IMG/VR virus record: IMGVR_UViG_3300011337_000412
Coordinates: 1 to 32,102 of that record
DNA length: 32,102 bases
Source of the DNA: a virus
Lineage: Duplodnaviria > Caudoviricetes
Direction: 5' to 3' (one strand)
The number at the start of each line of letters is the position of its first letter. Within the stretch, counting starts at the first letter, position 1. A program made the translations under genes and the position numbers. Below, piece after piece: positions 1 to 30,736 of the stretch. Under the pieces are notes generated by a model that saw only the letters and a list, made by a program, of their open reading frames with translations, had not been told where the DNA came from and made no database searches.

Positions 1-629
1 TGGGAGAAGATTGCAAGCTTCTTTGCGAGAACTTGTACACGGTCAAAAGTTGGGGAACTTTCAGTAATGTTGGTATTATCAGTAACCCAGTAAGCAGTTG
101 GAGAAACAGAGTTCTTTGGAACTTGTAACACATCGCTGGTCATCGTTTTGACATCAGAGTTACGTCTTACAACACCATATTGGTCTCTCAACCAAATAAT
201 ACTGTCAATAAGTTCATCTGGTACTAAAAATCCACCAGCAGAGTTGGTAGTTTCGTTAGCAGCTTTAGTTGAAGTATTGTTCTTCATCCATTCTTGGGAT
301 TTCTTATTACCAAGCATAGAAAGGGCAAAGTGGCCCCATTGGAGTGCTTTAACACCCTTTTCATAATCTGAACCGGTAAAAGGTAATGCTTTGTAGTTTA
401 CCTTTCCTGGCAAAATAATATCGCTCATTTTTGTTTCCTTGATTTCTGTATTCTTAACAGGAAGAAGTTGAGTTTCTACACTCTTAAGTGCTTCAACCTT
501 TTCGCTGATTTTTGTGTTTTCGTCTAACAACTTTTGTGCGTCCTCAACGACACCATCTTCTGCTTCAAGGATTGTTTTGGCCTTTACAGCATTATTAACT
601 TTGAGGACTTCGAGTTCTTCGATTGTCAT
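1..629 (-). CDS. Major capsid protein, HK97 fold, N-terminal part (runs off the window start)
   Basis: Hand translation from ATG 629 (RBS AGGA) is open to the edge: MTIEELEVLK...KAANETTNSAGGFLVPDELIDSIIWLRDQYGVVRR...AYWVTDNTNITESSPTFDRVQVLAKKLAIFS. GGFLVP and ITES.PTF..V.L.AKKL are typical HK97-family motifs. Follows the prohead protease. Not in the ORF track. Confidence 0.93.
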   Translation of the reverse strand, partial: MTIEELEVLKVNNAVKAKTILEAEDGVVEDAQKLLDENTKISEKVEALKSVETQLLPVKNTEIKETKMSDIILPGKVNYKALPFTGSDYEKGVKALQWGHFALSMLGNKKSQEWMKNNTSTKAANETTNSAGGFLVPDELIDSIIWLRDQYGVVRRNSDVKTMTSDVLQVPKNSVSPTAYWVTDNTNITESSPTFDRVQVLAKKLAIFS

Positions 630-641
630 ATATTTTTCCTC

Positions 642-1688
642 TTATAATAAATCTAACATTGCTCTTTTGAGTAATGCTTGTTTTACTTCATCAACAGTTT
701 TTACATTTTCAACTGTTTCTGTTGTTGTTGCTGGTGTTTCATTTACATCTCGCAAATGAGACCAAACAATCCCAGACAAAACTTTCGCCTGGTTGTTAGA
801 AAGATTGAATACATCTCGCATCTTTCTCTCTAAATCTCTAATAGTTTCAGGAGTACTGTTTCTAAATGATTTTAACATAGCCATTTCAGCAGGTACACTC
901 ATATAAATATGTTCTGCTACATTTTTAGCTCTCATAACAAAACCATCAAGAAGGGCATTTACATAACTAATGTCTTTTCCTTCATCTAAAACTACATATA
1001 AACCTTCGCACATCTTTTCAAATAGTTCGTGGATAGCTTCTGATACTAACTCTCCCTCATAACCTTCAAATAATGTATCTGCTAACATTGTAGGGTCATC
1101 AGGTAAAACTAATGGCTCTTCTGGCATTTCTTCTTCCATATCTTCTTTCATTGGTTTGTACATATCCATACCATCATCTTTTTTAGGATAACAAGCATCA
1201 ACAAAATCAGATAAAGATTTAAATACTTTATTTCTACTTTCTGCTGGTGTTGGAGTAAGAGAGATTTCAGCAATAGGCCAACTCTTTACTTCAAATGATG
1301 CGCCTTTTTGAGTTCTTGATACTAAATGACCAGCACTACCAGATGAATAGCCTAACTTACCTTGTTTTGCCAGTTCATTAATCATTACAGCATATTTATC
1401 AGCCATATTTAGTTGTGCTTCAAACCAAATACCTGTATCATCATAAGTAGCAATACCACTTCCAATAGCATAAGATTTGATTGTATTATCTTGTCCGTGG
1501 TGGTAATACAAGTTCATTTTAAACTTGTCTCCCATTTTAAGAGGTCTACCAAAATCAGTGTTAGAAGTAAAAAAATCTGCTTCTAAATCAGTGTCGTTAG
1601 GGCTGCCAAATCTAATAGCATAACCTTTGACTAAACCATTTTCAGTAGCTTTGATTTCAGACCCAGAATGATAATATTGATGTTCCAT
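642..1688 (-). CDS. Prohead maturation protease (HK97-type, S78-like) with acidic C-terminal extension, possibly scaffolding
   Basis: VKGYAIRFG, YYHH, LGYSSGS and EISLTPTPAE motifs. Lies between MuF and capsid. Confidence 0.88.
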   Translation of the reverse strand: MEHQYYHSGSEIKATENGLVKGYAIRFGSPNDTDLEADFFTSNTDFGRPLKMGDKFKMNLYYHHGQDNTIKSYAIGSGIATYDDTGIWFEAQLNMADKYAVMINELAKQGKLGYSSGSAGHLVSRTQKGASFEVKSWPIAEISLTPTPAESRNKVFKSLSDFVDACYPKKDDGMDMYKPMKEDMEEEMPEEPLVLPDDPTMLADTLFEGYEGELVSEAIHELFEKMCEGLYVVLDEGKDISYVNALLDGFVMRAKNVAEHIYMSVPAEMAMLKSFRNSTPETIRDLERKMRDVFNLSNNQAKVLSGIVWSHLRDVNETPATTTETVENVKTVDEVKQALLKRAMLDLL

Positions 1689-1692
1689 ATGT

Positions 1693-2721
1693 TTACCTTA
1701 TATCTCGTAGTGGTTTAATAATAGTTGTTGGTCCCCATTCTTCATCTTGTTTTATTCCAACAAATGTATTTAATGGTTTTCCTTCTTTCCACAAGTTATA
1801 TCTTTCAGGACCTAATACCCTTTTTTTATCTTTTTCAGATAACCTACCAAAAAGTTGCTCTGCTGTTGGGATTTTATCAGATGTTTCTTCTATGGTATCA
1901 TCTCCTGTTATTTCAGCCCAAGTTTTTGTTTTTGGAACTATAACACATCTACAGTTAGGATGAGTTGGAAGTATTTGATTTAACTTGTAAACTGTACCGT
2001 GTAAGGCATAACAAGCAGGACAAGTACGAGCATCTCCAGCAGCTAATCTTATATAACCACTAATAAGGTCTGTGTTTTCGCTATAGTTTTGTACTGTTGC
2101 TGTTCTTGCTGCTCTTAAACTTTCTGTCCTCGCTATTGTATTTGCCCTATAAAGAGGCATCATTGTTTGTCTTTTTATTTCTCTTGCTATTTTTACTGGA
2201 TTTTGGCCTTGTAAGATACCGTTAGATAATGTATTAGTTATATCTGTCCCATAATCAACAACAATCTTTTGAAATAAATCATTAAGAGGACTGCCATTAG
2301 AAGCAAACCCAACAAACTCTTCCATAGCACCAGCATCAATAAGATTTATATTATATTCAAATCCTTTAGGTGGTTTTCCTAATGATGCTTCTATATTATC
2401 TTTACTATAATCTGTTCCAATCTTTACACTATTTCTTTGTAAATCTTCAGTAATATCTATAGCATCCTGGTTGAACTTTTCTATCTTCTCTTCTATAGCA
2501 TTTAATCTTTGCTCATAAAAACCCTTCATTTCTTCGTATATTTCAACATCGGGTCTACCATCAGCAATCATCTTATTTATTTGTATTTCAAGTCTATTTA
2601 GTTCATTTAGTACAGGAGATAAGGAAGCAGTATAAGCCCTCGTCATATCTTTGAGGGCTTTTTCTTCTAATAATCTCAATCTCTTCTTATATCTATTGGC
2701 AACTGTATATAATCTTGCCAT
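1693..2721 (-). CDS. Minor head protein, MuF / SPP1 gp7 family
   Basis: RANTIARTE, DARTCPAC and PTHPNCRC motifs. Directly after portal. Confidence 0.92.
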   Translation of the reverse strand: MARLYTVANRYKKRLRLLEEKALKDMTRAYTASLSPVLNELNRLEIQINKMIADGRPDVEIYEEMKGFYEQRLNAIEEKIEKFNQDAIDITEDLQRNSVKIGTDYSKDNIEASLGKPPKGFEYNINLIDAGAMEEFVGFASNGSPLNDLFQKIVVDYGTDITNTLSNGILQGQNPVKIAREIKRQTMMPLYRANTIARTESLRAARTATVQNYSENTDLISGYIRLAAGDARTCPACYALHGTVYKLNQILPTHPNCRCVIVPKTKTWAEITGDDTIEETSDKIPTAEQLFGRLSEKDKKRVLGPERYNLWKEGKPLNTFVGIKQDEEWGPTTIIKPLRDIR

Positions 2722-2723
2722 AT

Positions 2724-4367
2724 TTAGTCCTCTGGTTCATAAGGTACTATATTCTTGCCTTCATCCATTAGTCTATTTCTTATTTTAGTAGACCAACTTT
2801 GCCCAGCATCTCCACCCCATAAACTCCACGCTACTCTTCCTGGACTTGGATAACCTTCTTCTCCACTATTAAAACCTTCTGCTTCTTTATCTACTTCGTG
2901 TCTGGCAAAGAAACTATACATACGCAAAATAGTGTCATCAGATAAGTTTTCATTATTAACGATTTGATTTGCTCGTGCTAATCCTACTCTTGTTCCACCT
3001 TTATAGCCTTCATCTTTCCATTTGAGGGCTTTCTTTGCTTCTTCTTTCATACCATCTGTTGGGAAATATTTAAAAGATAAAGATTTTGTAACTTCAGGAA
3101 CAGGAAAACTAACAGCACCATAATAAAAATCTTCATCTTCTGGTAATGGCTGAATACTAATCATTCTTTTTGCATCTGCTCTACTAATAACACCTTTTTC
3201 AAATAATGTAGCAGCTCTTTCGGAGTTAGCATAAACATCTTCTGCTAATGCTCTTACTTCAGAAACATCATAATCTACATAATCTCCTGGTTTTGGACTG
3301 AACTCTGGAAGAAGCATAATAGATAAGATTTCGCAAAGACTATCAAGCATTGGAAGCATACCATCAGTCCAAGCTGCTGATTGGCTTTGTTCATAGTTGC
3401 TATATGTAGAGTTTTCTAATCCAGCATTCAAACCAAGACACATAGCATTTAAACCTAATGCTGCTGGTACTCTGGTTTCGGGCAATCTTCTTATTTCAGA
3501 TAAATCAAGTTCAGAAGGAGAAAATGAAACTCTTTCCATTTTATAAGCGCCAGATAATACAGCAATACCACCAGCATTATCAGTAGCAAAATCTTCTCTT
3601 AATCTTCTTTTGATTGTTTTAGCATCATCTGGGCTAATATCAACACTATTATCATTAGCATCAGGACCAATAATCATAGATGGAAGAGCACCATTTTTGA
3701 TTAATCCATATGCAGTTGAAGAAGCTTGATTATCGCAAGAAATCTCCCTTAAAACACTATTTATAGGGCTGTTTCCAAGTCTTATGTCTGTAGTTGAACG
3801 TCCAAATCTCCAATGAATAATATCTTCTTTTTCAATCTTATATTCTGCGCCTGTAACTGTGTAAATATAATATTGTATTGCTACTTTGCTGTCTCCAATA
3901 GGCCTAACCATATCAGCAGGTAAATATTCAAGAGCAATAACAGAGTTTCCAATACCTCTGATTTTTCTTAAATAAGCATTACCAAGAAGTAAATAGTCTT
4001 GAATATAGTTTCCCCATACAATAGATGGAGGAATATTACCATTCATAGGGTCTTTTAAGAGTTCAAGGATATCATTCATTTGAACTTCTTTTTGACCAGT
4101 AGATTTATTTACAACTTGAAAAGCAACTTGAGAAAAGTTTGTCAAATACCAACGAGTACAAATAGCAACAATAGAGTTTAGAGATAAATCTCCTGCTTCT
4201 CTTACCCAGTCTCTATTAGATGAAGGTAGTTTTTTCTGAAGAAGGGCAAGTAAATCTCCATTACCTCTACCTGTTAATCCACCTACACTCATTGAATAGT
4301 TGTTTGGTGGTGGTAGTTGTTCTTTATTGTTAGCGCTTGTTAGTTTTAAGAAATCAAAAAATCCCAT
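2724..4367 (-). CDS. Portal protein (HK97 family) with an extra C-terminal domain of about 100 aa
   Basis: LLLGNAYL, EDIIHWR, G.SPI, KNGALPS and TYSNYEQ motifs. Directly after terL. Confidence 0.93.
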   Translation of the reverse strand: MGFFDFLKLTSANNKEQLPPPNNYSMSVGGLTGRGNGDLLALLQKKLPSSNRDWVREAGDLSLNSIVAICTRWYLTNFSQVAFQVVNKSTGQKEVQMNDILELLKDPMNGNIPPSIVWGNYIQDYLLLGNAYLRKIRGIGNSVIALEYLPADMVRPIGDSKVAIQYYIYTVTGAEYKIEKEDIIHWRFGRSTTDIRLGNSPINSVLREISCDNQASSTAYGLIKNGALPSMIIGPDANDNSVDISPDDAKTIKRRLREDFATDNAGGIAVLSGAYKMERVSFSPSELDLSEIRRLPETRVPAALGLNAMCLGLNAGLENSTYSNYEQSQSAAWTDGMLPMLDSLCEILSIMLLPEFSPKPGDYVDYDVSEVRALAEDVYANSERAATLFEKGVISRADAKRMISIQPLPEDEDFYYGAVSFPVPEVTKSLSFKYFPTDGMKEEAKKALKWKDEGYKGGTRVGLARANQIVNNENLSDDTILRMYSFFARHEVDKEAEGFNSGEEGYPSPGRVAWSLWGGDAGQSWSTKIRNRLMDEGKNIVPYEPED

Positions 4368-4395
4368 ATGTTATATCCTCATTGGTTGCTTTTTT

Positions 4396-4408
4396 ATTTT
4401 ATCGTTAG
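4396..4408 (-). promoter_or_regulatory. Candidate late promoter (CTAACGATAAAAT) for the portal/head operon
   Basis: Variant of the TAGACGATAAAAT motif. Overlaps the terL stop codon and lies upstream of the portal RBS GAGGA. Confidence 0.6.
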
Positions 4409-5832
4409 TAGGCCATAAACTTCTTCAATATAAATAGTTGAGAAAATGCATCTGACATAGCATCAACTTGGTCATCGTGTTTACCAAGAGGAAATGTTCG
4501 TAGTTCATCTATAAAACTCTTATTCCAATCTCCCTTAACTAAATAAACATTACCAGCATTTACTTGGCTTGCTATACCTTCTGCTCTTACTTCTTTCTTT
4601 CCAGTGGGTCTTATTTTAGCAATGTTATGACCAGCTAATAATCTAAATAAATATTGTGTTTGGAACTTACCTGCTGCTCCTGGGTCTTCTGGTATTGTAA
4701 TATTTATTCTTCCATCCATATCAGCAGTATTTTTAATCCATTTATCTCTTTGATTAGGTTCCCATTGTCCACATACTACATCAAGGATATAAATATTTTT
4801 ATTTTCATCTATTCCCATTTTAATCCCAGCGCTAAAGTCTCCATCATTTTCAGTTGCTGCTAAATCCCAACTTCTTATAGTTTTAGTAAGATTATTAGGT
4901 GCAGCACTAATAATATTTAACTCCTGTATTTTGAAGAATGAGCCCTCTTTTGGGGTTGGATTTACTTGATATAATGATTGGAATGCATAGTCTCCAATAA
5001 CCTTCTTAATACGCATAAAATCATCTATATTGTATCTTTCTGGCCACAATGCTTCTCCTATGTTTCTACCTAAAGCATCGTCTACATTATCGCAAATAGC
5101 AGGTAAATCAAGTATATGCCATTTATCTGGTTCTGCTTCTACTACTCTTGCACTTAAATCATCTTCGTGCCAAGGTGTCATAGTTATTAAAACTTTTCCA
5201 TTTGGTTCTAATCTTGTAAGTAAATCTGAACCATACCAATCCCATACATTTTCTCTATATGTTTTACTTTCCGCTTGTTCTCTGTTAGCAATAGGGTCGT
5301 CGATACAGATAAGAGAAAAACCTTGGCCTGTTGGAGCATTACCAGTTCCTCTTGCCATACACGTTCCACCATCTTCTGTTTGCCATTCATCAGCAGCAGT
5401 TTTAGTTCTATCTATCTTATTTCTTGATGAATATATATTTCTTGACATTCTTGAGAAACGACGAGCCATTCTTTCATTGTAACTTGTAATCAATACATTA
5501 TCTTCAGGATATTGTTCCATCATATAAGCAGCAAGTCTAATAGTAGAAGATTGAGTTTTACTATGACGTGGTGGCATTTTAATAAGTAATCTATCAAACT
5601 TACCATCTAAAAAATCTTGGATTGTTTCTGCTATTTTAATAATATGTGGAGGCAAAGACCAAGTTTTAGGATATGTCTCTTGTAGGAAATCTAAATATAA
5701 TGGATGTTCTTTTTGTTTTTTATTGTTCTCTATCCGGGTTTGCTGCTGATAAAAGTTGAACCGACCAGTTTGCAAGTTGTTGATGTAAATCGGCAATCTG
5801 TCCTGCGCTTTGTGTCCTAATATATCTCTCAT
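4405..5832 (-). CDS. terL: Terminase large subunit (start uncertain)
   Basis: Walker A MPPRHSKT, Walker B LICIDDP, coupling motif TPWHEDD, nuclease motifs SWDLA and HDDQVDA. Confidence 0.96.
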   Translation of the reverse strand: MRDILGHKAQDRLPIYINNLQTGRFNFYQQQTRIENNKKQKEHPLYLDFLQETYPKTWSLPPHIIKIAETIQDFLDGKFDRLLIKMPPRHSKTQSSTIRLAAYMMEQYPEDNVLITSYNERMARRFSRMSRNIYSSRNKIDRTKTAADEWQTEDGGTCMARGTGNAPTGQGFSLICIDDPIANREQAESKTYRENVWDWYGSDLLTRLEPNGKVLITMTPWHEDDLSARVVEAEPDKWHILDLPAICDNVDDALGRNIGEALWPERYNIDDFMRIKKVIGDYAFQSLYQVNPTPKEGSFFKIQELNIISAAPNNLTKTIRSWDLAATENDGDFSAGIKMGIDENKNIYILDVVCGQWEPNQRDKWIKNTADMDGRINITIPEDPGAAGKFQTQYLFRLLAGHNIAKIRPTGKKEVRAEGIASQVNAGNVYLVKGDWNKSFIDELRTFPLGKHDDQVDAMSDAFSQLFILKKFMAY

Positions 5833-6100
5833 CTTGACCTACTTTTGCTATTGTCTCTATTGCTTTTAAATGTTCTTTTAGGGATGATATTAATAAATCT
5901 TCTATCCTATCAACAGCATTTTCAGGTAATAAAGATTTCTGGTCTTCATCTAACTCTGATTTTATTTTAGATACAGCACTTTTAGCAATACCGTGTTGTC
6001 TTGATAGTTCGCACACTCCAAGGCCTACTAATAATCCAGCAATAATATCTGCTTTCATTGCATTAGTTATCTTTGTGTAAGTTCTTTTTTGTTCTTCCAT
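5720..6100 (-). CDS. terS: Terminase small subunit (putative)
   Basis: N-terminal HTH (VCELSRQHGIAKSAVSKIK), helical C-terminal part, immediately upstream of terL, RBS GAGGT. Confidence 0.75.
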   Translation of the reverse strand: MEEQKRTYTKITNAMKADIIAGLLVGLGVCELSRQHGIAKSAVSKIKSELDEDQKSLLPENAVDRIEDLLISSLKEHLKAIETIAKVGQDERYIRTQSAGQIADLHQQLANWSVQLLSAANPDREQ

Positions 6101-6117
6101 AATATACCTCTTTTATT

Positions 6118-6130
6118 ATTTTAGCGTCTA
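6118..6130 (-). promoter_or_regulatory. Candidate late promoter (TAGACGCTAAAAT) for the terminase genes
   Basis: 12/13 match to the motif at 27768 and 31619. Sits between a terminator and the terS RBS. Confidence 0.65.
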
Positions 6131-6134
6131 TGAT

Positions 6135-6167
6135 AAAAAAAACCCCAGTAGGAGAAGTACTGGGGTT
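6135..6167 (-). terminator. Rho-independent terminator
   Basis: 10-bp stem AACCCCAGTA/TACTGGGGTT with a 7-nt loop, followed by a U-tract on the minus strand. Confidence 0.88.
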
Positions 6168-6197
6168 AAGGAGTTTGAAATGTCAATGAACCTAACA
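6135..6197 (-). ncRNA. Candidate small RNA of about 60 nt
   Basis: Perfect extended -10 TGgTATAAT at 6203-6211, then a short ORF-free stretch and an intrinsic terminator. Confidence 0.45.
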
Positions 6198-6214
6198 AAT
6201 ATATTATACCACAT

Positions 6215-6451
6215 CTACAAAAGTTTTACCTGCTCATCCCAACTATGTAAGTAAATATTAGCATAACCACCATCTAATAGTTCTTTAATAAACTCAATAG
6301 GAGAACTGTCCATATCAAAAGCTTCCATAAGTTCTTGGATTGTTGCCATATCGTGGTCTTCTGTTTTAGCAGCAATGGAGATTTTAACCATTGGATATAA
6401 ACCTTTTAATCCTGACTTATCTTCCAAGTTGTTGTAATCTTCTTCTTTCAT
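6215..6451 (-). CDS. Hypothetical acidic protein, 78 aa
   Basis: RBS AAGGA, tight operon packing. Confidence 0.7.
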   Translation of the reverse strand: MKEEDYNNLEDKSGLKGLYPMVKISIAAKTEDHDMATIQELMEAFDMDSSPIEFIKELLDGGYANIYLHSWDEQVKLL

Positions 6452-6459
6452 ATTTATCC

Positions 6460-6708
6460 TTATACTAAATACAGTCTATCATTCTCTGTTCTAAAATAGC
6501 AATAGTATCCATCTTCTATTTTATTAACTTTTTTTCCTTTAAACTTTTCAGAATGTTTTGCCCAGTCATCTCTACTAATATATCCTACGATGAGTTTACT
6601 TATTACAATGGTCATTTTAATGCCTAAAACAAAGCCAATAAGCACTCTAATACTACCACTGTCGTATATTTCATCTAACTTGCTAATATCTATGCTATGC
6701 TTCATCAT
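6460..6708 (-). CDS. Hypothetical protein, 82 aa
   Basis: ATGA overlap with the upstream gene, in operon. Confidence 0.6.
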   Translation of the reverse strand: MMKHSIDISKLDEIYDSGSIRVLIGFVLGIKMTIVISKLIVGYISRDDWAKHSEKFKGKKVNKIEDGYYCYFRTENDRLYLV

Positions 6709-7076
6709 TCAGTCATTCCAAGATATTTACTTATTAAATCTATTCCAGTTTGTGCATCCTTAACTTCAACAAAAAGAGGCCATTTTGATGTGTTTTTCAT
6801 TATAATCTCTTTCCATTCTTGTTGTTGCTTTGATAGTTTACCTTTCTCTGATTTTACTTCAATATAGAGGGCAGAATAAACACCATTATCAAGAGGTACT
6901 ATTAAATCCCATACTCCACTCCGCATACCAAGTTTCTGTAGCCATTTAACTATTCCAAAGCTAACGCCAAAGAAAGAGTTAGGTGGATGATAAATACATT
7001 TTAATGCTTCAAAATCTTCTTCATTTGCCCGCACCCAATCCATAATCTCTATATGGATTTCAGCTTCTTTTTTCAT
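6705..7076 (-). CDS. VRR-NUC family nuclease (putative Holliday junction resolvase), start reassigned to MKKEAE at 7076
   Basis: EAEIH, HPPN, GMRSGVWDL and LYIEVKSEKGKLSKQQQEW match the VRR-NUC pattern. The ATG at 7091 lies inside the promoter motif. Confidence 0.85.
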   Translation of the reverse strand: MKKEAEIHIEIMDWVRANEEDFEALKCIYHPPNSFFGVSFGIVKWLQKLGMRSGVWDLIVPLDNGVYSALYIEVKSEKGKLSKQQQEWKEIIMKNTSKWPLFVEVKDAQTGIDLISKYLGMTE

Positions 7077-7081
7077 ATAGC

Positions 7082-7094
7082 ATTTTACCATCTA
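7082..7094 (-). promoter_or_regulatory. Candidate late-type promoter (TAGATGGTAAAAT), probably giving a leaderless mRNA
   Basis: Motif variant directly after a terminator. Only 5 nt separate TAAAAT from the ATG and there is no SD. Confidence 0.55.
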
Positions 7095-7126
7095 AAAAAA
7101 ACCCCTCTTTTTAGGGAGGGGATTTT
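7095..7126 (-). terminator. Rho-independent terminator, copy 1 of an identical 32-bp repeat
   Basis: CCCCTC/GAGGGG stem plus U-tract. Identical to 7415-7446. Confidence 0.9.
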
Positions 7127-7141
7127 AGAAACTATATTATT

Positions 7142-7339
7142 TTATTTTTTATAGGTTTCAACTTGTTCAGCAATCAAATCATTTATTGCTTTTTTAACTA
7201 TTTTGACATCATCTGTTGGAAGTCTGTTACTCAATAAGTTATTTACACTGCGGAGTATATTCAAAATATCTTCTGCTTGTAAATCTACACCATTAGTTTC
7301 TTCTAACAGTTGTTCCTTTTGAACTTGTTTTATCTTCAT
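7142..7339 (-). CDS. Small helical early protein, 65 aa, paralog of 7450-7677
   Basis: Has its own promoter, RBS AAGGAG and terminator. LNILRSVNNLLSNRLPTD aligns with LKELRNIKEILSNPLATD. Confidence 0.85.
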   Translation of the reverse strand: MKIKQVQKEQLLEETNGVDLQAEDILNILRSVNNLLSNRLPTDDVKIVKKAINDLIAEQVETYKK

Positions 7340-7373
7340 AACTTTTCTCCTTGTAGCTCTTATCTACACTACT

Positions 7374-7401
7374 ATTATACACCTTGCTGTTTAGATGTCA
7401 A
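7374..7401 (-). promoter_or_regulatory. Consensus sigma-70 early promoter
   Basis: TTGACA (7396-7401), 16 nt, TATAAT (7374-7379). Confidence 0.88.
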
Positions 7402-7414
7402 ATATTTTAGGCAT

Positions 7415-7446
7415 AAAAAAACCCCTCTTTTTAGGGAGGGGATTTT
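7415..7446 (-). terminator. Rho-independent terminator, copy 2
   Basis: Identical to 7095-7126, 320 bp apart. Confidence 0.9.
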
Positions 7447-7449
7447 GCA

Positions 7450-7677
7450 TTACTTCATCAACCACTTGTAAGCGTTAAGATGAGTTGTTATCAATCCATC
7501 AACTGATTGTCTTACCGTTTCCATTTGGTGGTCTGTAGCAAGCGGGTTGCTTAATATTTCTTTGATATTACGCAGTTCCTTCAACCAATCAGCGTATTGG
7601 ACAGACATCATATCTATATGCTCTTCCTTCTGGTCCTTAAGCTCTTGCAACGCAACCAACAGTCCATCTTTTCTCAT
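7450..7677 (-). CDS. Small helical early protein, 75 aa, paralog of 7142-7339
   Basis: Has its own promoter, RBS AAGGAG and terminator. Confidence 0.85.
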   Translation of the reverse strand: MRKDGLLVALQELKDQKEEHIDMMSVQYADWLKELRNIKEILSNPLATDHQMETVRQSVDGLITTHLNAYKWLMK

Positions 7678-7711
7678 AACATTTCTCCTTGTAGTGCTTG
7701 TCTACACTACT

Positions 7712-7739
7712 ATTATACATCTTTCTGTGTAGATGTCAA
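7712..7739 (-). promoter_or_regulatory. Consensus sigma-70 early promoter
   Basis: TTGACA (7734-7739), 16 nt, TATAAT (7712-7717). Near-duplicate of the 7337-7401 region. Confidence 0.88.
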
Positions 7740-7764
7740 CCTTACCTCTAAAACAATTTTGGGT

Positions 7765-7795
7765 AAAAAATAGCCCCGTGGTTAGCGGGGCTATT
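7765..7795 (-). terminator. Rho-independent terminator of the SprT-like gene
   Basis: AATAGCCCCG/CGGGGCTATT stem plus U-tract. Confidence 0.88.
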
Positions 7796-7802
7796 AGTTG
7801 TG

Positions 7803-8501
7803 TTACAGCAGGATTTCTGGTCCTGTGTACTTGCGGATTTGCATCCAAGGTTTCTCTCCACTTGGTAGCGCAAGCCAGCTATCAAAGTTTGGCTCCGGTC
7901 CTTTATATGGCCAGCATTCTGGACATACATAGTACTTGCTTGGTCTTGACACGCTTGGGTAGCTAAAATCGCAAACCTCGCAGTAGCGTTCAAACTTGGC
8001 TGGTCTACCTTTGACACCGGATGGTCTTAAACCAAACCCAATGCGCTCTCCTTCTGCCCAAAACTCATCGCTATGGTCAAAATAGGTAAGGTGTGCTATC
8101 TCGTGGTAGAGCGTCTCAAGGATTTGAACAAACCCCCAATCCTCATAGTACTTGTAAGATATTGATATTTCAAATGTACCACCCTTTTCAGGTCGGCCAT
8201 AGCTGCGACATCTACCAGCGTACCCAACCTTATATTTGTTAATAGTAAGGTAATCAGGACGCTTTAGCACTGAACCTGGCTCAACTCCCGCACCCACATA
8301 ATGCACAGCCATACAATAGTTATATGCTGCCCAAAGGAAGGTGTGTAGTTCTACCTTGCTCAACGTCTTGTCTTCAATGTCATACTTACCAGCAAAGTGG
8401 ATGTTGTTGATAAAATTGAACTCCTTTTTAAGGCGCTCCACCAACTTGTCCTCATCTACATAAACGTGGTCTTCCCAACCATTATCTCTTTCTCTCGACA
8501 T
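7803..8501 (-). CDS. SprT-like zinc metalloprotease with C-terminal zinc ribbon
   Basis: AGRC, TLYHEIAH (HExxH), third ligand in HSDEFW, CEVC...CPEC. RBS GGAG. Confidence 0.85.
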   Translation of the reverse strand: MSRERDNGWEDHVYVDEDKLVERLKKEFNFINNIHFAGKYDIEDKTLSKVELHTFLWAAYNYCMAVHYVGAGVEPGSVLKRPDYLTINKYKVGYAGRCRSYGRPEKGGTFEISISYKYYEDWGFVQILETLYHEIAHLTYFDHSDEFWAEGERIGFGLRPSGVKGRPAKFERYCEVCDFSYPSVSRPSKYYVCPECWPYKGPEPNFDSWLALPSGEKPWMQIRKYTGPEILL

Positions 8502-8798
8502 TTTCTTTCTCCAGCTGCGGATGTTCCGCAGTCCTTATATTTGCTACTCTCTCCGCCTATGATGCGCAGTGCTCCCTTGCGGGTGCTGATTGGTTCATCC
8601 TGCTTCTCTTCCACACCTAACCCATCAGTTCTGCTGGTTGCTTACCTCCTTCTTGGAACTCATCGGTTTCAGGAGAGCCAACGTCAGTTGGGGTTTGTGC
8701 GGGAGCCCTGCTATCAGTACCTCTCCTGCTATGTTTAGTAACGTGCTGCTTGCGGGAGCCTTTCGGTCCCAGTAGATTAGGCACTTGGGCTTTGTCTA
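8502..8798 (-). ncRNA. Candidate structured RNA or long 5' leader, about 300 nt
   Basis: GC-rich, lies between a consensus promoter and the SprT start, has GAAA and GCAA tetraloop hairpins and several stems, and no convincing ORF. Confidence 0.5.
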
Positions 8799-8803
8799 CT
8801 TCT

Positions 8804-8832
8804 ATTATACATCATTCCGCAAGGATTGTCAA
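8804..8832 (-). promoter_or_regulatory. Consensus sigma-70 early promoter
   Basis: TTGACA (8827-8832), 17 nt, TATAAT (8804-8809). Confidence 0.9.
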
Positions 8833-8882
8833 CTTACCTGCTTGGTAGCCTGTGCGCTGGTCTTGCTTCCTGTTGTATCTCT

Positions 8883-8910
8883 ATTATACACCATTCCGCA
8901 GGATAAGCAA
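8883..8910 (-). promoter_or_regulatory. Second, tandem early promoter
   Basis: TTGCTT, 16 nt, TATAAT. The spacer is nearly identical to that of 8804-8832 (TGCGGAATGrTG). Confidence 0.75.
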
Positions 8911-9020
8911 CTCCACCTTCTTTTGAATAATGCCACGATTTATTAACCATTGTAATCGTAGGATTGTACATAGCCTTGATTAGCGGGTTAGGGTATAATA
9001 AGAAAAAAACCTCAAGACTT

Positions 9021-9080
9021 ATGTTGACTAAATCAGTAGGAATATACTACTTAATAATGTTGACTAAATCGATTGGAATA
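9021..9080. repeat. Direct repeat with a 36-bp period (ATGTTGACTAAATC-N4-GGAATA, two copies)
   Basis: 9021-9044 and 9057-9080 share the 14-mer and the GGAATA block at the same offset. Confidence 0.8.
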
Positions 9081-9118
9081 CTATGAATAAATAATGCCAA
9101 AAGTTTTTCAGATACTGC

Positions 9119-9146
9119 TTGCTATTTATGCTATAAAGTGTATAAT
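9119..9146 (+). promoter_or_regulatory. Sigma-70 early promoter
   Basis: TTGCTA, 16 nt, TATAAT, then a TGTAAG/CTTACA leader hairpin and RBS AAGGAG. Confidence 0.8.
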
Positions 9147-9186
9147 ATGTATGTAAGGTTGATTACACTTACAAAGGAGAAATCAA

Positions 9187-9414
9187 ATGGTTAGTTATTG
9201 GACTTATAGTAAAGATACACAGTATCTGATGGAAATAGTAAAAGGCAAAAATGGAAAGTTTGCTGTAGTAAATCTGGAAAGATTTCCAATGACATTTGAA
9301 AGGTCATTGAGCCAGTGTAAAGAAGAAATCAGATATGCGATAGAAACAGAAACACTAACAGGAAGTCAAGAAGAAATAGCAGAAATAATCCAGAAGTTAG
9401 ATAAGATGAAATAA
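9187..9414 (+). CDS. Small early hypothetical protein, 75 aa
   Basis: Has its own promoter, a strong RBS and a terminator. Confidence 0.85.
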   Translation: MVSYWTYSKDTQYLMEIVKGKNGKFAVVNLERFPMTFERSLSQCKEEIRYAIETETLTGSQEEIAEIIQKLDKMK

Positions 9415-9419
9415 GCAAG

Positions 9420-9449
9420 AAGCCCCTCCTTTCAGAGGGGCTTTCTTTT
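9420..9449 (+). terminator. Rho-independent terminator
   Basis: AAGCCCCTC/GAGGGGCTT stem plus U-rich tail. Confidence 0.88.
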
Positions 9450-9536
9450 GCTTTTGTAGTATCAATAATAAATAATGAAATGAAAATATTTTTGCCTTTT
9501 TTTCATTCTACCCTGATTTTTCAGGTTTAGTAAAAG

Positions 9537-9692
9537 TTCGTACATCTATCTAAAAAAGTTCGTACAAGTACCATTTTATTTTCGTACATCTTTTACTTTT
9601 TTTCGTACATCTTTTACTTGTACGAGTTTTTTAGCCTATAAATCCATTCTCTTATATAACTCTCTATAACTAAAATAACTAATAATAACTAT
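9537..9692. repeat. Putative replication origin: iterons plus AT-rich repeats
   Basis: TTCGTACA at 9537, 9559, 9581 and 9602 (spacing 22, 22, 21), inverted TGTACGA at 9619, then ATAACT at 9656, 9666, 9675 and 9685. Confidence 0.7.
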
Positions 9693-9963
9693 TAAAGGAG
9701 AAACCCAGAAAAGGCTTCGCCTATTTATTTCTTTTTTTTTAATAAAGAGAGAGAAGGTCCGCTTCGCTCCAGCTAAATAAGAGAGAAAATAAGAGAAGGA
9801 AATAATATACAATATAGAGAATAATAAAATATCAAACTTGGAGGAATAAAAAAATGGTTATTGATATTACAAATACAGCTCTTGTTGTAATGGGATTGTA
9901 TTTAATAAATGAAGTTAGGTTATATATGCTGTATTCAAAAATATTAGAACTTGAAAAAATAGT

Positions 9964-9992
9964 TTGCATTGATAAGAAATAATAGGTATAAT
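9964..9992 (+). promoter_or_regulatory. Sigma-70 promoter of the plus-strand operon
   Basis: TTGCAT, 17 nt, TATAAT, then AGGAG. Confidence 0.8.
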
Positions 9993-10013
9993 GATAGACA
10001 GGAGAAAAATGAA

Positions 10014-10964
10014 ATGTACACAGAAGAAGATTACCAAATAGAACAGCAAAGAGATTTTTATAGCTCTATGATGAATGACTATAATAAGCCAAACAAAAAG
10101 AAATCTCAAAAAGAAGCATACTTTGTTTTTGAAAGTGCAATACAGTTAAGAATAAGCACACAATATTTTGAACATAAAGAAATAGAAGCAAAAGACTTTA
10201 GACATATCCAAGGTATTAGAGAAGCTTATAACTTTATTGGTAAAAACCACTATACCGTAAAACATTCATTCAAATGGTTCAATGATAACTTAAAGGATGA
10301 ATGGTTATATTGGTCTACTGATGATTGGGTTAAAAATGATAAAAAGGGTAGATTTATTCTTGAAAGTTGGATAGACCAAAACATAGTCAAAAATGCTATA
10401 AAACACTATCAAAAACCTATAAGCATACCAAAACCCATAATAATAGCAGAAACGCCTAAAACAGTGGTTATTGAGCCTAAAAAAGAAGAAGTAGAAGTTG
10501 CTATAGTTAAGATTAAAAAAGAAAAGCCAATATTCCATCCTACTCATAAACTTGTAGTAAAAGATGGAAAGGTAGATATAAATAGTTTAATCCTTGCTTT
10601 AGCTGATTTGGTTTGGAGGGAGCCAAATAGGAAAAACTTATATTATATTGATAAGCTTGATTTATCTGAACTTACTAATGACCAAAAAGATTATGTAAAG
10701 GCTGTTTTCTATCCTAATAAAAATAATGGAAATATCGCAGTATTACAAAACAACCCTTACTGGACTATTGAAAAAGCAGGGAAGAATATTATGTTAGTGC
10801 CATCAAGAAAAAGAGAAGGCTATTACTACATAGATAATAAAAATGGTAATCCAGGTTTAGTATCATTAACAACTATCAGCACCAGACTAAATATAGCAAA
10901 AAATACAGTTATTTATAGACTATCAAATATGTCATTGAAAGATTTAGTAAAAATGTCCAAATAG
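10014..10964 (+). CDS. Hypothetical DNA-binding protein, candidate replication initiator (start reassigned to MYTEE at 10014)
   Basis: RBS AGGAG before ATG 10014, basic composition, C-terminal HTH-like segment (LTTISTRLNIAKNTVIYRL), adjacent to the iterons. Function is inferred from position only. Confidence 0.5.
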   Translation: MYTEEDYQIEQQRDFYSSMMNDYNKPNKKKSQKEAYFVFESAIQLRISTQYFEHKEIEAKDFRHIQGIREAYNFIGKNHYTVKHSFKWFNDNLKDEWLYWSTDDWVKNDKKGRFILESWIDQNIVKNAIKHYQKPISIPKPIIIAETPKTVVIEPKKEEVEVAIVKIKKEKPIFHPTHKLVVKDGKVDINSLILALADLVWREPNRKNLYYIDKLDLSELTNDQKDYVKAVFYPNKNNGNIAVLQNNPYWTIEKAGKNIMLVPSRKREGYYYIDNKNGNPGLVSLTTISTRLNIAKNTVIYRLSNMSLKDLVKMSK

Positions 10965-11042
10965 TAGAAGGTGTATATAAAAAGTCTCCAGAATAGTAAA
11001 TATGTTATAAGTTGTATAACGTAAATATAGGAGACTTTTGAA

Positions 11043-11669
11043 ATGATAGGAAAACTTTTTGATAGCGGATTTCGGGATTGGGATTTATTAGAACACGAGC
11101 TTTTATTACAAGCAAAAGTAAATATTAGACAACATATTAATGAACTTAAATCCCAACAAGAAGAGATAACAAATAGACACAACCATATGATGCAAATAGA
11201 TACTACACCAAGATTTTTAAATACATTTGATATTGATGCTTTATTGACACCACAAGGAGTTGATTTTGATTGTTTAATACAAGAACAAGGTATTAGTCAG
11301 TTTCAACCATTTGCGTTGAATGAATACAAGATTTATGAAGATAGTACAAAAAGAGGGTTTTTAAAAAAATCCCAAAGATTAGCATTAGTAGAGTTAGCAA
11401 AGAAGAGCAACTTACCAGCATATTGTATTTGGAGCCATAATAACAAGGATGGTTCTTATACTTGGTTTAGAATATGTTTGCATCATACAACAGAACAAAA
11501 TATTGGTAAATATGGTATAATGAGCGATAGACAATATTATACTTGGAAGATGAGATTGAGAAAACTATACACAGAGATTGATACTGTACATTTAGAAACA
11601 TTATCAGATACATTGGTTAGAAACAGCGACAAGATTATGGAGGATATATTAAATAATGCCAGCAAGTAA
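11043..11669 (+). CDS. Hypothetical protein with a PD-(D/E)xK nuclease-like motif
   Basis: D.D...ALNEYK...SQRLALVELAKKSNLPAYCIW pattern. RBS AGGAG. Confidence 0.5.
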   Translation: MIGKLFDSGFRDWDLLEHELLLQAKVNIRQHINELKSQQEEITNRHNHMMQIDTTPRFLNTFDIDALLTPQGVDFDCLIQEQGISQFQPFALNEYKIYEDSTKRGFLKKSQRLALVELAKKSNLPAYCIWSHNNKDGSYTWFRICLHHTTEQNIGKYGIMSDRQYYTWKMRLRKLYTEIDTVHLETLSDTLVRNSDKIMEDILNNASK

Positions 11670-11865
11670 TAACACATTTGGAATGACACAAATGGAAATA
11701 GCAAATAAGAGTGGTTTACATCAAAGTCATATTAGCAAGTATCTCAATGGTAAATCAATGCCTACTTTGGTTAATATTGAAAGGATTGCTGATGCTTGTA
11801 ATATTACGATTGAAGAAGTTAGTCAGTATCTTTTATCAGCATACAAGACAAGAAAAGCAGGATAG
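11656..11865 (+). CDS. XRE/Cro-family HTH regulator
   Basis: GMTQMEIANKSGLHQSHISKYLNGKSMPTLVNIERIADA is a classic HTH_3 pattern. RBS GGAGG. Confidence 0.92.
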   Translation: MPASNNTFGMTQMEIANKSGLHQSHISKYLNGKSMPTLVNIERIADACNITIEEVSQYLLSAYKTRKAG

Positions 11866-11913
11866 TTGTTATACCTCCAAGTATATATTAAATAATGTAC
11901 TTGGAGGACTATT

Positions 11914-12684
11914 ATGATGCATACAAGTTGGACTGATTATAACATTAGTCGTAAAAAAAATAAGTTACCTACTCTCGATGATGATAGATGGTTAGCAGAT
12001 AAATATAATAATGGTAGGGATAAGGATGCTAATAAGGCAGCAGAAGAAATCTTATCATTATATGGAAATCTTGCTCATAGTATTGCTATTAAATGTAAGG
12101 GTAGAGGAGTTGAGTTAGAAGATTTATTACAATCAGCAAAAATGGGATTATTATATAGTCTTACAAAATACAATGCTGATAAAAGTAAACTATCAACTTA
12201 TGCTACACCTTGGATTTGGCAATATTGTTTGAGAACTATTGAAAATACAGGAAGAACTATTAGACTTCCAAATCATATCCACGAGGCTTTAATACAAATC
12301 ATTAGAGCAGGAATAGATTTAGATTATACAGAACTAATAAAAATAATAGATTTACCACCAAGTAGAATACAGGCTGCTCTTGATGGATATAAAACAATGA
12401 CAATGAGCCTGGATGATATTAATGATATATATGAGGATAAAAATATGGACAGAGTTATTTTAGACAGCGTAATGGAAAGTGTTTTAGAGTTGTTTTCAAA
12501 GGATGAGTTATCTCTCAATGTTATTAAAGATTATTGTGGTCTTGGCGATGAAGATGAGATGATGGATGTTCAGTTACTTTCTGCTAAATATAATAAGCCA
12601 GTAAGAGAAATGACTGATATCTTAAATACAGCTCTTAATGCTATTAGAGACAGTGGTATTCTTGATGGAGAAACAATAGAATAA
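11914..12684 (+). CDS. Phage-encoded sigma-70 family RNA polymerase sigma factor
   Basis: Region 2 GRGVELEDLLQSAKMGLL...KLSTYATPWIWQ and RTIRLPNHI, region 3 SLD, degenerate region 4. Confidence 0.92.
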   Translation: MMHTSWTDYNISRKKNKLPTLDDDRWLADKYNNGRDKDANKAAEEILSLYGNLAHSIAIKCKGRGVELEDLLQSAKMGLLYSLTKYNADKSKLSTYATPWIWQYCLRTIENTGRTIRLPNHIHEALIQIIRAGIDLDYTELIKIIDLPPSRIQAALDGYKTMTMSLDDINDIYEDKNMDRVILDSVMESVLELFSKDELSLNVIKDYCGLGDEDEMMDVQLLSAKYNKPVREMTDILNTALNAIRDSGILDGETIE

Positions 12685-12685
12685 T

Positions 12686-13111
12686 ATGGAAAAAAAGATT
12701 AGTGTTGGTTATGATTGCTATAAGAGTATTGTAAGCGATAATGAAGATTTGCGTAATGAAAATGAAGAGTTAGAAGAAGCAGTAGAACAACTAAAAAAAG
12801 AACTACAAGAAGCTAAATCAGAACATACAATGGACCAAGCAAGAGTTGTATTTGCTCATCATATATTAAATGGTTGTAGAGACGAGCAAGTTTTAATACA
12901 CCAGGATAAAAAAGCGCAAGAAGTTGTATTTTGGAAGATGAAGAGCGATAAGTATTTTTATGAGATGGAACATTATCAAAAAAGTAATAAAGCTTGGCAA
13001 ACAAAATATGAAAGTTTATTCCAAAAACATCAAGAGCTTTTAGGAGCAATCGTAGAACTTGAAAATGTTATAGATGATTATCAAAAACATAGCAAGTGTT
13101 GTAAGAAATGA
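12686..13111 (+). CDS. Coiled-coil hypothetical protein
   Basis: Heptad-rich E/K/L sequence, RBS GGAG, in operon. Confidence 0.75.
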   Translation: MEKKISVGYDCYKSIVSDNEDLRNENEELEEAVEQLKKELQEAKSEHTMDQARVVFAHHILNGCRDEQVLIHQDKKAQEVVFWKMKSDKYFYEMEHYQKSNKAWQTKYESLFQKHQELLGAIVELENVIDDYQKHSKCCKK

Positions 13112-13221
13112 ACCAGCTATTATTTTGGTTTAGTATAGTTCAACTTTTCTTATGTGGATTTTATTTTGGATATTTATTTGGCGATAGAAATGAGAAAAAA
13201 AGAGAAAAAAATGAAAAGTAA
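13108..13221 (+). CDS. Small membrane peptide, 37 aa (MNQLLFWFSIVQLFLCGFYFGYLFGDRNEKKREKNEK)
   Basis: Hand translation. ATGA overlap with the upstream stop, one hydrophobic helix and a charged tail. Confidence 0.6.
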   Translation: MNQLLFWFSIVQLFLCGFYFGYLFGDRNEKKREKNEK

Positions 13222-13279
13222 ACTGGGCGATTATGTAATAGAAAAATATTTAGAATGGTTGAAGGAAAAAGATAGATAG
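13211..13279 (+). CDS. Possible 22-aa peptide (MKSKLGDYVIEKYLEWLKEKDR)
   Basis: Overlaps the previous stop codon and looks like an amphipathic helix. Confidence 0.4.
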   Translation: MKSKLGDYVIEKYLEWLKEKDR

Positions 13280-13404
13280 ATGTTGTATAATATAAGTGTA
13301 AGTGGAAATCAGACAGGATAGTAGACGTACATTAAAATGAGCAATACATAAACTTACAAGAAATAAATAACATTTTTGTTTATTTTGCAACACAGTCTAA
13401 AGAA

Positions 13405-13452
13405 AATAACCCCGGAGGTAAACGTATTTTTACGATGAGACCGGGGTTATTT
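13405..13452. terminator. Bidirectional terminator-like hairpin where the two transcription directions converge
   Basis: AAATAACCCCGG/CCGGGGTTATTT 12-bp stem with a large loop. Confidence 0.7.
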
Positions 13453-13457
13453 GTATG

Positions 13458-13643
13458 TTATCTCTTAAATCTATTAAACTGTTCTAACTTTAAAATATAT
13501 GCTAAATGTGCTAAATCAACTGGGTCGAGTTTTTGTAGTTTTATTTTTTCTACTGCCAATGTTGGTTTTGATAAGTTTATTGTTTTTGTTTGATTGTGTA
13601 AAGGATTTTGTACTAAAAATAAAAGACAGATTAGACTACTCAT
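13458..13643 (-). CDS. Small protein with hydrophobic N-terminus, possible lysis accessory
   Basis: Likely start MSSLICLLFLV overlapping the upstream stop. Downstream of the endolysin. Confidence 0.5.
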   Translation of the reverse strand: MSSLICLLFLVQNPLHNQTKTINLSKPTLAVEKIKLQKLDPVDLAHLAYILKLEQFNRFKR

Positions 13644-13878
13644 AACCTTTTCCAATACCAGCTTTATTTGCTGTTTCTACTTTTACTTTGCGATGATACA
13701 TTTCTACTTGCACAGCTTTATCTAACAGCTTCATATCATCATCAGAAAGGGGCTTAAATACCTCTTTTACGCCATTCTTAATCAAACTATCCATCAACAT
13801 ACTACCAAGTGGAAAAGAAGCTAAATCCACTTCAGGAACACCGATTTTCTTCTTCAAAAAGTTGCTAATAATACTCAT
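13636..13878 (-). CDS. Hypothetical protein, 80 aa, in the lysis region
   Basis: RBS AGGAG, directly after the endolysin. Confidence 0.7.
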   Translation of the reverse strand: MSIISNFLKKKIGVPEVDLASFPLGSMLMDSLIKNGVKEVFKPLSDDDMKLLDKAVQVEMYHRKVKVETANKAGIGKGYE

Positions 13879-13886
13879 TCTATCTC

Positions 13887-14411
13887 CTAATACATTTTAA
13901 TAAAACCGCCAAATACTCCAAAGTTTATCCATTTTCTATGTTTACGGTAAACTCCATCTCCATTTGCAGTTACTACATCAGTTTCTGGGCCAGTATTACC
14001 TTCAACCATTAATACTCCACCCTCAATAGTATTTATTACAACTCCAATATGGTATATCCTGCCTTTTGTTTTGCTATAGAATAAACCAAGATAACCTTTT
14101 TTCAATAGTTCTGGATTGTCTCTTGCTTCTTGAACAGTAATAAATCTTTTATTATCTTTTGCCCAAGCAGCCCAATCAGGTGTCCATCCAGATAAATCCA
14201 TAAAAGATTTAGGCATTTTCTTCTTTAGTTTTTTTGCTGCTTCAATGTATCTATATTTAACAAAAGCTGCACACCAAGCATAACCTTCATCAAGATTTAC
14301 TGTTTTTAAATACTTGGCGATATGGTCTCCGTGGTTGTCTTCGCCCTTTTCTGTTGTGCCTACATTTAACAGTGCTTCTTCCGCTGCTTTTATTGCTATT
14401 TGTTCGTCCAT
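13887..14411 (-). CDS. Endolysin, CHAP / NlpC-P60-type peptidoglycan hydrolase
   Basis: AWCAAFV (catalytic Cys), HIGVV (His), VEGNT and DGVYRK motifs. Confidence 0.88.
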   Translation of the reverse strand: MDEQIAIKAAEEALLNVGTTEKGEDNHGDHIAKYLKTVNLDEGYAWCAAFVKYRYIEAAKKLKKKMPKSFMDLSGWTPDWAAWAKDNKRFITVQEARDNPELLKKGYLGLFYSKTKGRIYHIGVVINTIEGGVLMVEGNTGPETDVVTANGDGVYRKHRKWINFGVFGGFIKMY

Positions 14412-14416
14412 ACATC

Positions 14417-14429
14417 ATTTTATCCTAAC
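14417..14429 (-). promoter_or_regulatory. Candidate late promoter (GTTAGGATAAAAT) giving a leaderless endolysin mRNA
   Basis: GATAAAAT is 5 nt before the ATG with no SD. Same geometry as 7082. Confidence 0.45.
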
Positions 14430-30459: not shown

Positions 30460-30736
30460 TACTTTTCTCCAACATCTCGACTTTTGCTTGTAGTACCCCA
30501 ACTGTTGTATGAAGTTTATTTACAGCTTGTTCGTTGTTTTCAATCTTTCCTTCTATTTTTTCGATTTGTTTGCTCATCTTTTCAACGTCATCTTTTACAT
30601 TTTTGACATCGTTTGAGACATTATCAAGTTTTTTAGAAATATTGGAGAAAAATAAAAATCCTGGTATGACGATTGTACTAATGACCAATATTCCATTACC
30701 GATTACTCCATTTATAACATTAGGGTCTATAGACAT
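30437..30736 (-). CDS. Single-TM coiled-coil protein, holin-associated type
   Basis: N-terminal hydrophobic helix followed by long heptad repeats. Confidence 0.6.
   Translation of the reverse strand: MSIDPNVINGVIGNGILVISTIVIPGFLFFSNISKKLDNVSNDVKNVKDDVEKMSKQIEKIEGKIENNEQAVNKLHTTVGVLQAKVEMLEKSNEKHFHQ

Follow-up and report, generated by a model that had tools for sequence, protein, structure and literature searches.

StxS, a small RNA of Stx phages, derives from the leader of a late promoter. Together with the c4 RNA of P1/P7, which blocks a ribosome-binding site, probably via its loops, it is presented as a short trans-acting phage RNA in the accessible part of a review (PMC12197685); according to that part, a function is known for few regulatory RNAs from virulent phages. 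In beta-cyanobacteria, the small RNA PsrR1 (SyR1) lowers the expression of photosynthesis genes and, in the available portion of the report, is a proven repressor at ribosome-binding sites (PMC6596454). The endoribonuclease RegB of phage T4 cuts GGAG Shine-Dalgarno motifs of early mRNAs, late mRNAs being spared, according to the accessible text of PMC3014915.

The DNA analyzed here is a phage record of 32.1 kb with a GC content of roughly 34%, the whole of which is referred to as the window; the capsid gene is broken over both of its ends. Structural genes are located on the minus strand. In the early region lie cassettes of the sigma-70 type together with an HTH gene and one for a sigma-70-family factor.

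A predicted small-RNA unit ahead of the terminase genes

The window contains a compact unit with a 78-aa gene on one side and the putative terS gene on the other; the elements of this region are as follows.

5720..6100, minus strand: putative terminase small subunit gene (terS), named by its position only
6118..6127, minus strand: late-type box ACG(A/C)TAAAAT between terminator and terS, a putative promoter
6135..6167, minus strand: intrinsic terminator with a 10-bp stem (6141-6167), loop CUUCUCC (6157-6151) and eight U
6135..6197, minus strand: small RNA of ~63 nt, predicted from the sequence
6169..6174, minus strand: first anti-Shine-Dalgarno motif, ACUCCU
6177..6191, minus strand: 15-nt seed, invariant in the alignment, containing two anti-AUG triplets at a distance of 6 nt
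6188-6179, minus strand: 10-nt core common to the seed and PsrR1
6203..6213, minus strand: extended -10 promoter-like box (TGGTATAAT at 6211-6203; TGTGGTATAAT over 6203..6213) without recognisable -35, predicted +1 at ~6197
6215..6451, minus strand: 78-aa gene of unassigned function upstream of the unit, its stop codon adjoining the promoter box
6180..6254, plus strand: 24-aa ORF, judged a non-gene and not conserved

The extended -10, a 17-mer (6168-6184), the hairpin with loop CUUCUCC and the 24-aa plus-strand ORF had been listed in an earlier note on this DNA, and all were present as listed. The upstream part of the promoter overlaps the final codons of the 78-aa gene and, because a -35 is lacking, the promoter is omitted by a sigma-70 scanner. 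About 30 pyrimidine-rich bases separate the extended -10 from the terminator, and a second CUCCU is found across the terminator loop (6157-6151) and the stem base next to it. The same terminator (6135..6167) also ends the upstream run of VRR-NUC, 82-aa and 78-aa genes. The fold has a z-score of -3.28, with 1/200 shuffles equally stable, mostly through the contribution of the terminator; the seed of the window variant is only ~0.6 unpaired. At the level of the sequence, the locus thus combines its own promoter and terminator with no conserved ORF, as would suit a trans-acting small RNA directed against ribosome-binding sites. PHROG and Pfam searches with the putative terS product returned no matches.

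The late-type box ACG(A/C)TAAAAT occurs five times in the window against 0.4 expected (minus strand; 6127, 4405, 27777, 31628 and 23792). Four copies lie directly upstream of structural genes, and the box is also found in relatives. Upstream of the lysin and VRR-NUC genes there are variants of the box, the leader there being nearly nil. The box is a putative late promoter, possibly one used by the phage sigma factor encoded at 11914-12684; if so, read-through of the terminator would not be needed for terS expression.

Elsewhere in the window, repeated early cassettes (7102-7121, 7422-7441, 7374-7401 and 7712-7739) share a near-identical promoter, leader and terminator and carry one small gene apiece. 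An SprT-like gene has a GC-rich, strongly folded leader of ~297 nt (8501-8797, minus strand) with four (C/T)CCGCA repeats and strong tandem promoters ahead of it; its cassette is inverted in the relatives L004, L006 and L009. The intergenic region 9530-9620 (plus strand) contains short direct repeats of TTCGTACA, possibly origin iterons.

Conservation in close relatives

Each of the nine viral loci found via the terS protein (9/9) retains all parts of the unit, from the promoter and the invariant 15-nt seed to ACUCCU and the hairpin. Aligned with the window, they give 10 sequences representing 8 distinct variants, among which the extended -10 box is invariant (10/10) and the seed is fixed, flanks and spacers being variable. 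ACUCCU follows the 15-nt block after 2-4 nt and is followed in turn by a CCCCAG/CTGGGG hairpin, the loop of which always contains CUCCU in these close relatives. At the outer pair of the terminator the variants have A-U, G-C or G-U. In 5/8 variants a 5' stem of 5-6 bp displays the seed in a 13-nt loop, with stem sequences that differ between the L002 and L003 types; the window variant, L006 and L009 are without this stem. RNAalifold, run on an automatic alignment, gave no covarying consensus. Conservation in related contigs, proposed as a check in the earlier note, exceeds chance in that the seed is invariant in 10 sequences.

Searches beyond the clade yielded little. GenBank phages gave no blastn match to the unit, matches in plasmids were at chance level only, and an SprT profile search produced no new relatives of substance. 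A relaxed pattern scan covering ~3/64 parts left 7/120 loci after a crude hairpin filter, two of them from this clade, and a second scan gave 22 loci, nine from the clade itself and 13 further ones in which this terminator layout was missing. No paper on this small-RNA family was found in a literature search whose reach mostly excluded subscription journals. It is likely that the unit represents an uncatalogued family of phage small-RNA genes.

L234 and L229 resemble the unit in layout, a promoter, a pyrimidine-rich stretch, a hairpin and a late-type box being located upstream of terS (L234, 850-970; L229, 470-600); their pyrimidine-rich sequences are not those of the clade, and their restriction profile differs. 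Separately, an unrelated phage group (L276, L280, L288, L293 and L294) has a -10, the identical 10-nt core, a 4-nt gap, UCUCCU (5 nt to CUCCU) and a long stable hairpin.

Candidate targets among the phage's own genes

GGAG is present in 10/10 early starts of the window and in 5/26 late starts (p 1.2e-5), the late set including two mis-set starts (g81 and the lysin). The relatives, whose starts are non-independent, show the same split with 15/18 early versus 23/126 late starts. In addition, matches between the terminator loop and early leaders reach lengths of up to 7-10 nt, the two mis-set late starts being left out of this comparison. The earlier note had described a stand-alone RNA complementary to start regions; this is supported, and within the clade the predicted RNA fits early leaders better than late ones.

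The best in-phage candidate for the seed was obtained in pairing tests:

8487..8523, minus strand: start region of the SprT-like gene

It comes top among 28 gene families, with a family-wise p of 0.10-0.13. In four held-out lineages, 9/3000 and 13/3000 shuffles paired as well (p about 0.004); the pairing register differs by lineage, and the starts are similar in two of the four. Partial matches to four start regions, on which the earlier note had built its list of targets, are indeed present. The SprT-like one holds, 10014 is borderline in two held-out lineages (59/3000 and 41/3000 shuffles as good), and 11043 fails: neither of the two divergent relatives carrying the gene retains its match, and 2943/3000 shuffles were as good in held-out relatives. 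A combined p for the four (0-2/1000) was post hoc and was set aside. CATG is absent from the genome; AATG contexts are therefore common and short matches inflated.

Comparison with shuffled controls, also suggested in that note, gave a divided picture, the SprT-like start pairing better than most shuffles and the best window start belonging to a non-conserved late gene. Of the 35 starts in the window, that of the late 99-aa gene at 30736 gave the strongest duplex (-21.1 kcal/mol), with a best-of-all p of 0.023, or 0.084 when the anti-Shine-Dalgarno motif was kept fixed. This gene was rejected as a target, its start not being conserved.

A related core in two distant genomes

The complete genomes G107 and G108, with terL 46-47% identical, have no such unit ahead of their terminase genes. 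Upstream of the VRR-NUC gene, however, they contain a related core followed by AACUCCU and an unrelated terminator. The core carries one change, A to G, which still pairs with U, and is enclosed by a 5' stem of 6-7 bp with one compensatory pair between the two genomes. About 0.007 matches to the core pattern are expected per genome, for a pattern written after G107 and G108 had been seen. G108 was flagged independently by the PsrR1 model at 19 bits; the clade model R1 detected neither genome in the parts searched, and the core pattern was absent from the three partial records G109-G111.

Both genomes are without an SprT-like gene. GGAG is found in 1/8 and 1/10 of their early starts, with no early preference, and early leaders mostly read AAGGA(A/T) (6/8 in G107, 9/10 in G108). 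Late starts pair better with the RNA than early starts do. The best own-gene duplexes were those of late genes (1/500 shuffles), and were given no weight because the shuffles left the anti-Shine-Dalgarno motif unfixed. Since the core is kept without an SprT-like gene and without GGAG-type early leaders, a target outside the phage, and hence an external constraint on the seed core, is likely. The earlier note had suggested shut-off of early/replication genes or of host translation; the phage's own early genes fail to explain the core in G107 and G108, and its remark on the host now points to the likelier target. The timing it proposed, at the early-to-late switch, is not supported; the promoter resembles the host-sigma type.

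Host clues

GATC, CATG, CTAG and CGCG have 0 sites each in the window, AATT has two and GANTC one. This avoidance is common to the close relatives and partial in G107 and G108, and it is consistent with a host that has many restriction systems. Their number is high in bloom-forming cyanobacteria and likewise in some heterotrophs, according to the accessible part of PMC8262939. The lysin match with the best E-value was to a Microcystis phage (35%; 2/15 records), the 13 weaker matches being from Streptomyces. Matches of the sigma factor and portal were taxonomically mixed, and NblA was absent from 5/5 records. Window positions 1-16000 gave no spacer-like match to plasmids, and an exact-seed scan of species genomes returned 21 scattered, unrelated matches with no common family, none labelled cyanobacterial. 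Terminase, portal, sigma factor, tail protein, the Atlas and the available part of a methylome paper (PMC6329791) contributed nothing decisive.

Proposed function and alternative explanations

We put the probability at roughly 55% that the unit (6197-6135) makes a stand-alone RNA of ~63 nt which would pair with the Shine-Dalgarno sequence and start codon and thereby block ribosome loading, mainly on host mRNAs. Host RNA polymerase would transcribe it from the extended -10, the promoter looking like a host-sigma type, and additional copies would perhaps come from the 3' end of the upstream operon transcript. The seed would stay unpaired, held in the majority of variants in a loop that the 5' stem closes, and the RNA would bind GGAG-type leaders. 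Structural genes would escape, their leaders being mostly GAGG or other. The phage's own early leaders, the SprT-like one foremost, may be secondary targets. In favour of this reading are the fixed seed amid variable flanks, the recurring 5' stems, the core in G107 and G108, the PsrR1 match and the GGAG split in the window; against it count the RNA run that showed no transcript of the unit, the scattered exact-seed matches with no host target among them, the window variant's missing 5' stem and only partly unpaired seed, the lack of a covarying consensus on the automatic alignment, the post hoc core pattern with the negative result of model R1, the other sequences at the same layout in L234 and L229, and the inflation of short matches by AATG contexts. 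As the seed is fixed, the RNA family is directly testable by reporter.

A rather unlikely reading is that the main role of the RNA is shut-off of early genes of the phage itself, the SprT-like cassette and AGGAGAA leaders above all, as a counterpart of T4 RegB in RNA form. The early/late GGAG split in window and relatives, the loop-to-leader matches, the first rank of the SprT-like start with its recurrence in held-out relatives and the borderline values for 10014 all argue for it. It is weakened by the family-wise p, the failure of 11043, the varying SprT registers and a top window start that is late and non-conserved, and by G107 and G108, where the core is retained although late starts pair better. 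We consider it decidedly unlikely that the conserved block, in which TTGACA occurs, is instead a site on the DNA or an RNA motif bound by protein, with the hairpin serving as the terminator of the upstream operon. TTGACAT is the -35 of the phage's early promoters, a -35 is lacking from the unit's promoter, and no transcript of the unit was seen in the single RNA run, whose contigs cover only 6756-7025 and so speak neither for nor against expression. Yet no -10 follows TTGACA, the distant core reads TTGGCA, two CUCCU are kept, spaced as a Shine-Dalgarno sequence is to AUG, and the 5' stems covary.

The position of the unit directly upstream of the packaging genes could also suggest an attenuated late-operon leader of the lambda pR'/tR' kind, which would make the short RNA a by-product. 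As its alternative, the earlier note had offered a type I toxin-antitoxin locus, with the RNA as cis-antisense partner of a 24-aa peptide on the plus strand; the ORF does have a good Shine-Dalgarno sequence and ATG. Both explanations are weak, because terS has its own late-type box and the ORF is not conserved. The attenuator is very improbable: the box, a putative promoter, lies between terminator and terS (6127-6118) and is repeated before other structural genes, the phage encodes a sigma-70-family factor, and the related unit in G107 and G108 precedes a VRR-NUC gene. For the toxin-antitoxin locus hardly any likelihood is left. Among relatives the ORF has 4, 5, 12, 13, 24, 35 or 49 aa in shifting frames and is therefore not a conserved toxin; moreover, it shows no hydrophobic helix, no family match and no convincing plus-strand promoter.

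Comparison with PsrR1 and other known systems

Rfam at gathering thresholds gave no matches in the window. The best match over the 161-nt locus was PsrR1 (RF02701), with 29.7 bits (E 4e-4) against the gathering cut-off of 42 bits that defines membership. The phage unit is not a PsrR1 member. An E-value scan of eight relative loci gave no PsrR1 match at E <= 1; a later family-specific search did, and the PsrR1 model matches the element in 8/10 clade records at 23-29.7 bits and in neither G001 nor G005. As background, 2/39 unrelated viral records matched at E <= 0.01, reaching at most 21.4 bits, and 61 genomes of one phylum (62 candidates scored each) contained four places at 29.2-30.2 bits, none above the cut-off. 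None of eight background places viewed had the 10-mer (0/8), several being terminators after anti-start-like sequence. Convergence can therefore give this score. In the bacterial genomes L298, L299, L300 and L302, terminators follow sequence antisense to a start region, and these may be further anti-start RNAs.

The likeness lies in the arrangement. In the Synechocystis sequences given in the accessible part of PMC6596454, PsrR1 has the same 10-nt core CAUUGACAUU, with CUCCU after it and then, beyond a short linker, a CCC/GGG terminator. The conserved single-stranded core with CUCCU before a terminator thus recurs in the phage unit, spacer bases aside. The gap between core and CUCCU measures 5 nt in PsrR1 and in 5/10 phage sequences, including the window, and 7 nt in the other five; the bases of the 5-nt spacer differ. 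The phage RNA is phage-encoded, is about half as long as PsrR1 (63 versus 131 nt) and has an extra anti-Shine-Dalgarno loop. An RpaB (HLR1) site, a trait of the PsrR1 promoter, is absent (11-13 of 16 positions in 10 promoters, background mode 11). Titles and opening abstracts on PsrR1 and cyanophages suggested no phage-borne PsrR1.

The unit may nonetheless work like PsrR1, which pairs with and represses psaL, cpcA, psaJ, chlN and psbB. As a sub-case of start blocking on host mRNAs, it is conceivable, though doubtful, that these phages infect bloom-forming cyanobacteria with a minimal, light-independent PsrR1 mimic, or a captured 3' half, that would repress phycobiliprotein and photosystem I mRNAs. 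Photosynthesis would then be remodelled in infection by a viral small RNA and not by an auxiliary protein. If the likeness is not functional, the unit would still provide a test of late-gene favouring by leader type and of RNA silencing of GGAG leaders.

StxS and c4, in the available part of the literature on them, belong to temperate enterobacterial phages and have no reported sequence match to the unit; here, in addition, a separate promoter seems to serve the downstream operon. With T4 RegB, as far as its accessible description goes, the unit would share early GGAG leaders as the class acted upon, late ones being spared; however, RegB is a protein nuclease requiring S1, and the phage unit is an RNA for which cleavage is not implied. 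Should the likeness to PsrR1 prove functional, a virus would have copied, in the form of RNA, a regulator of its host's photosynthesis.
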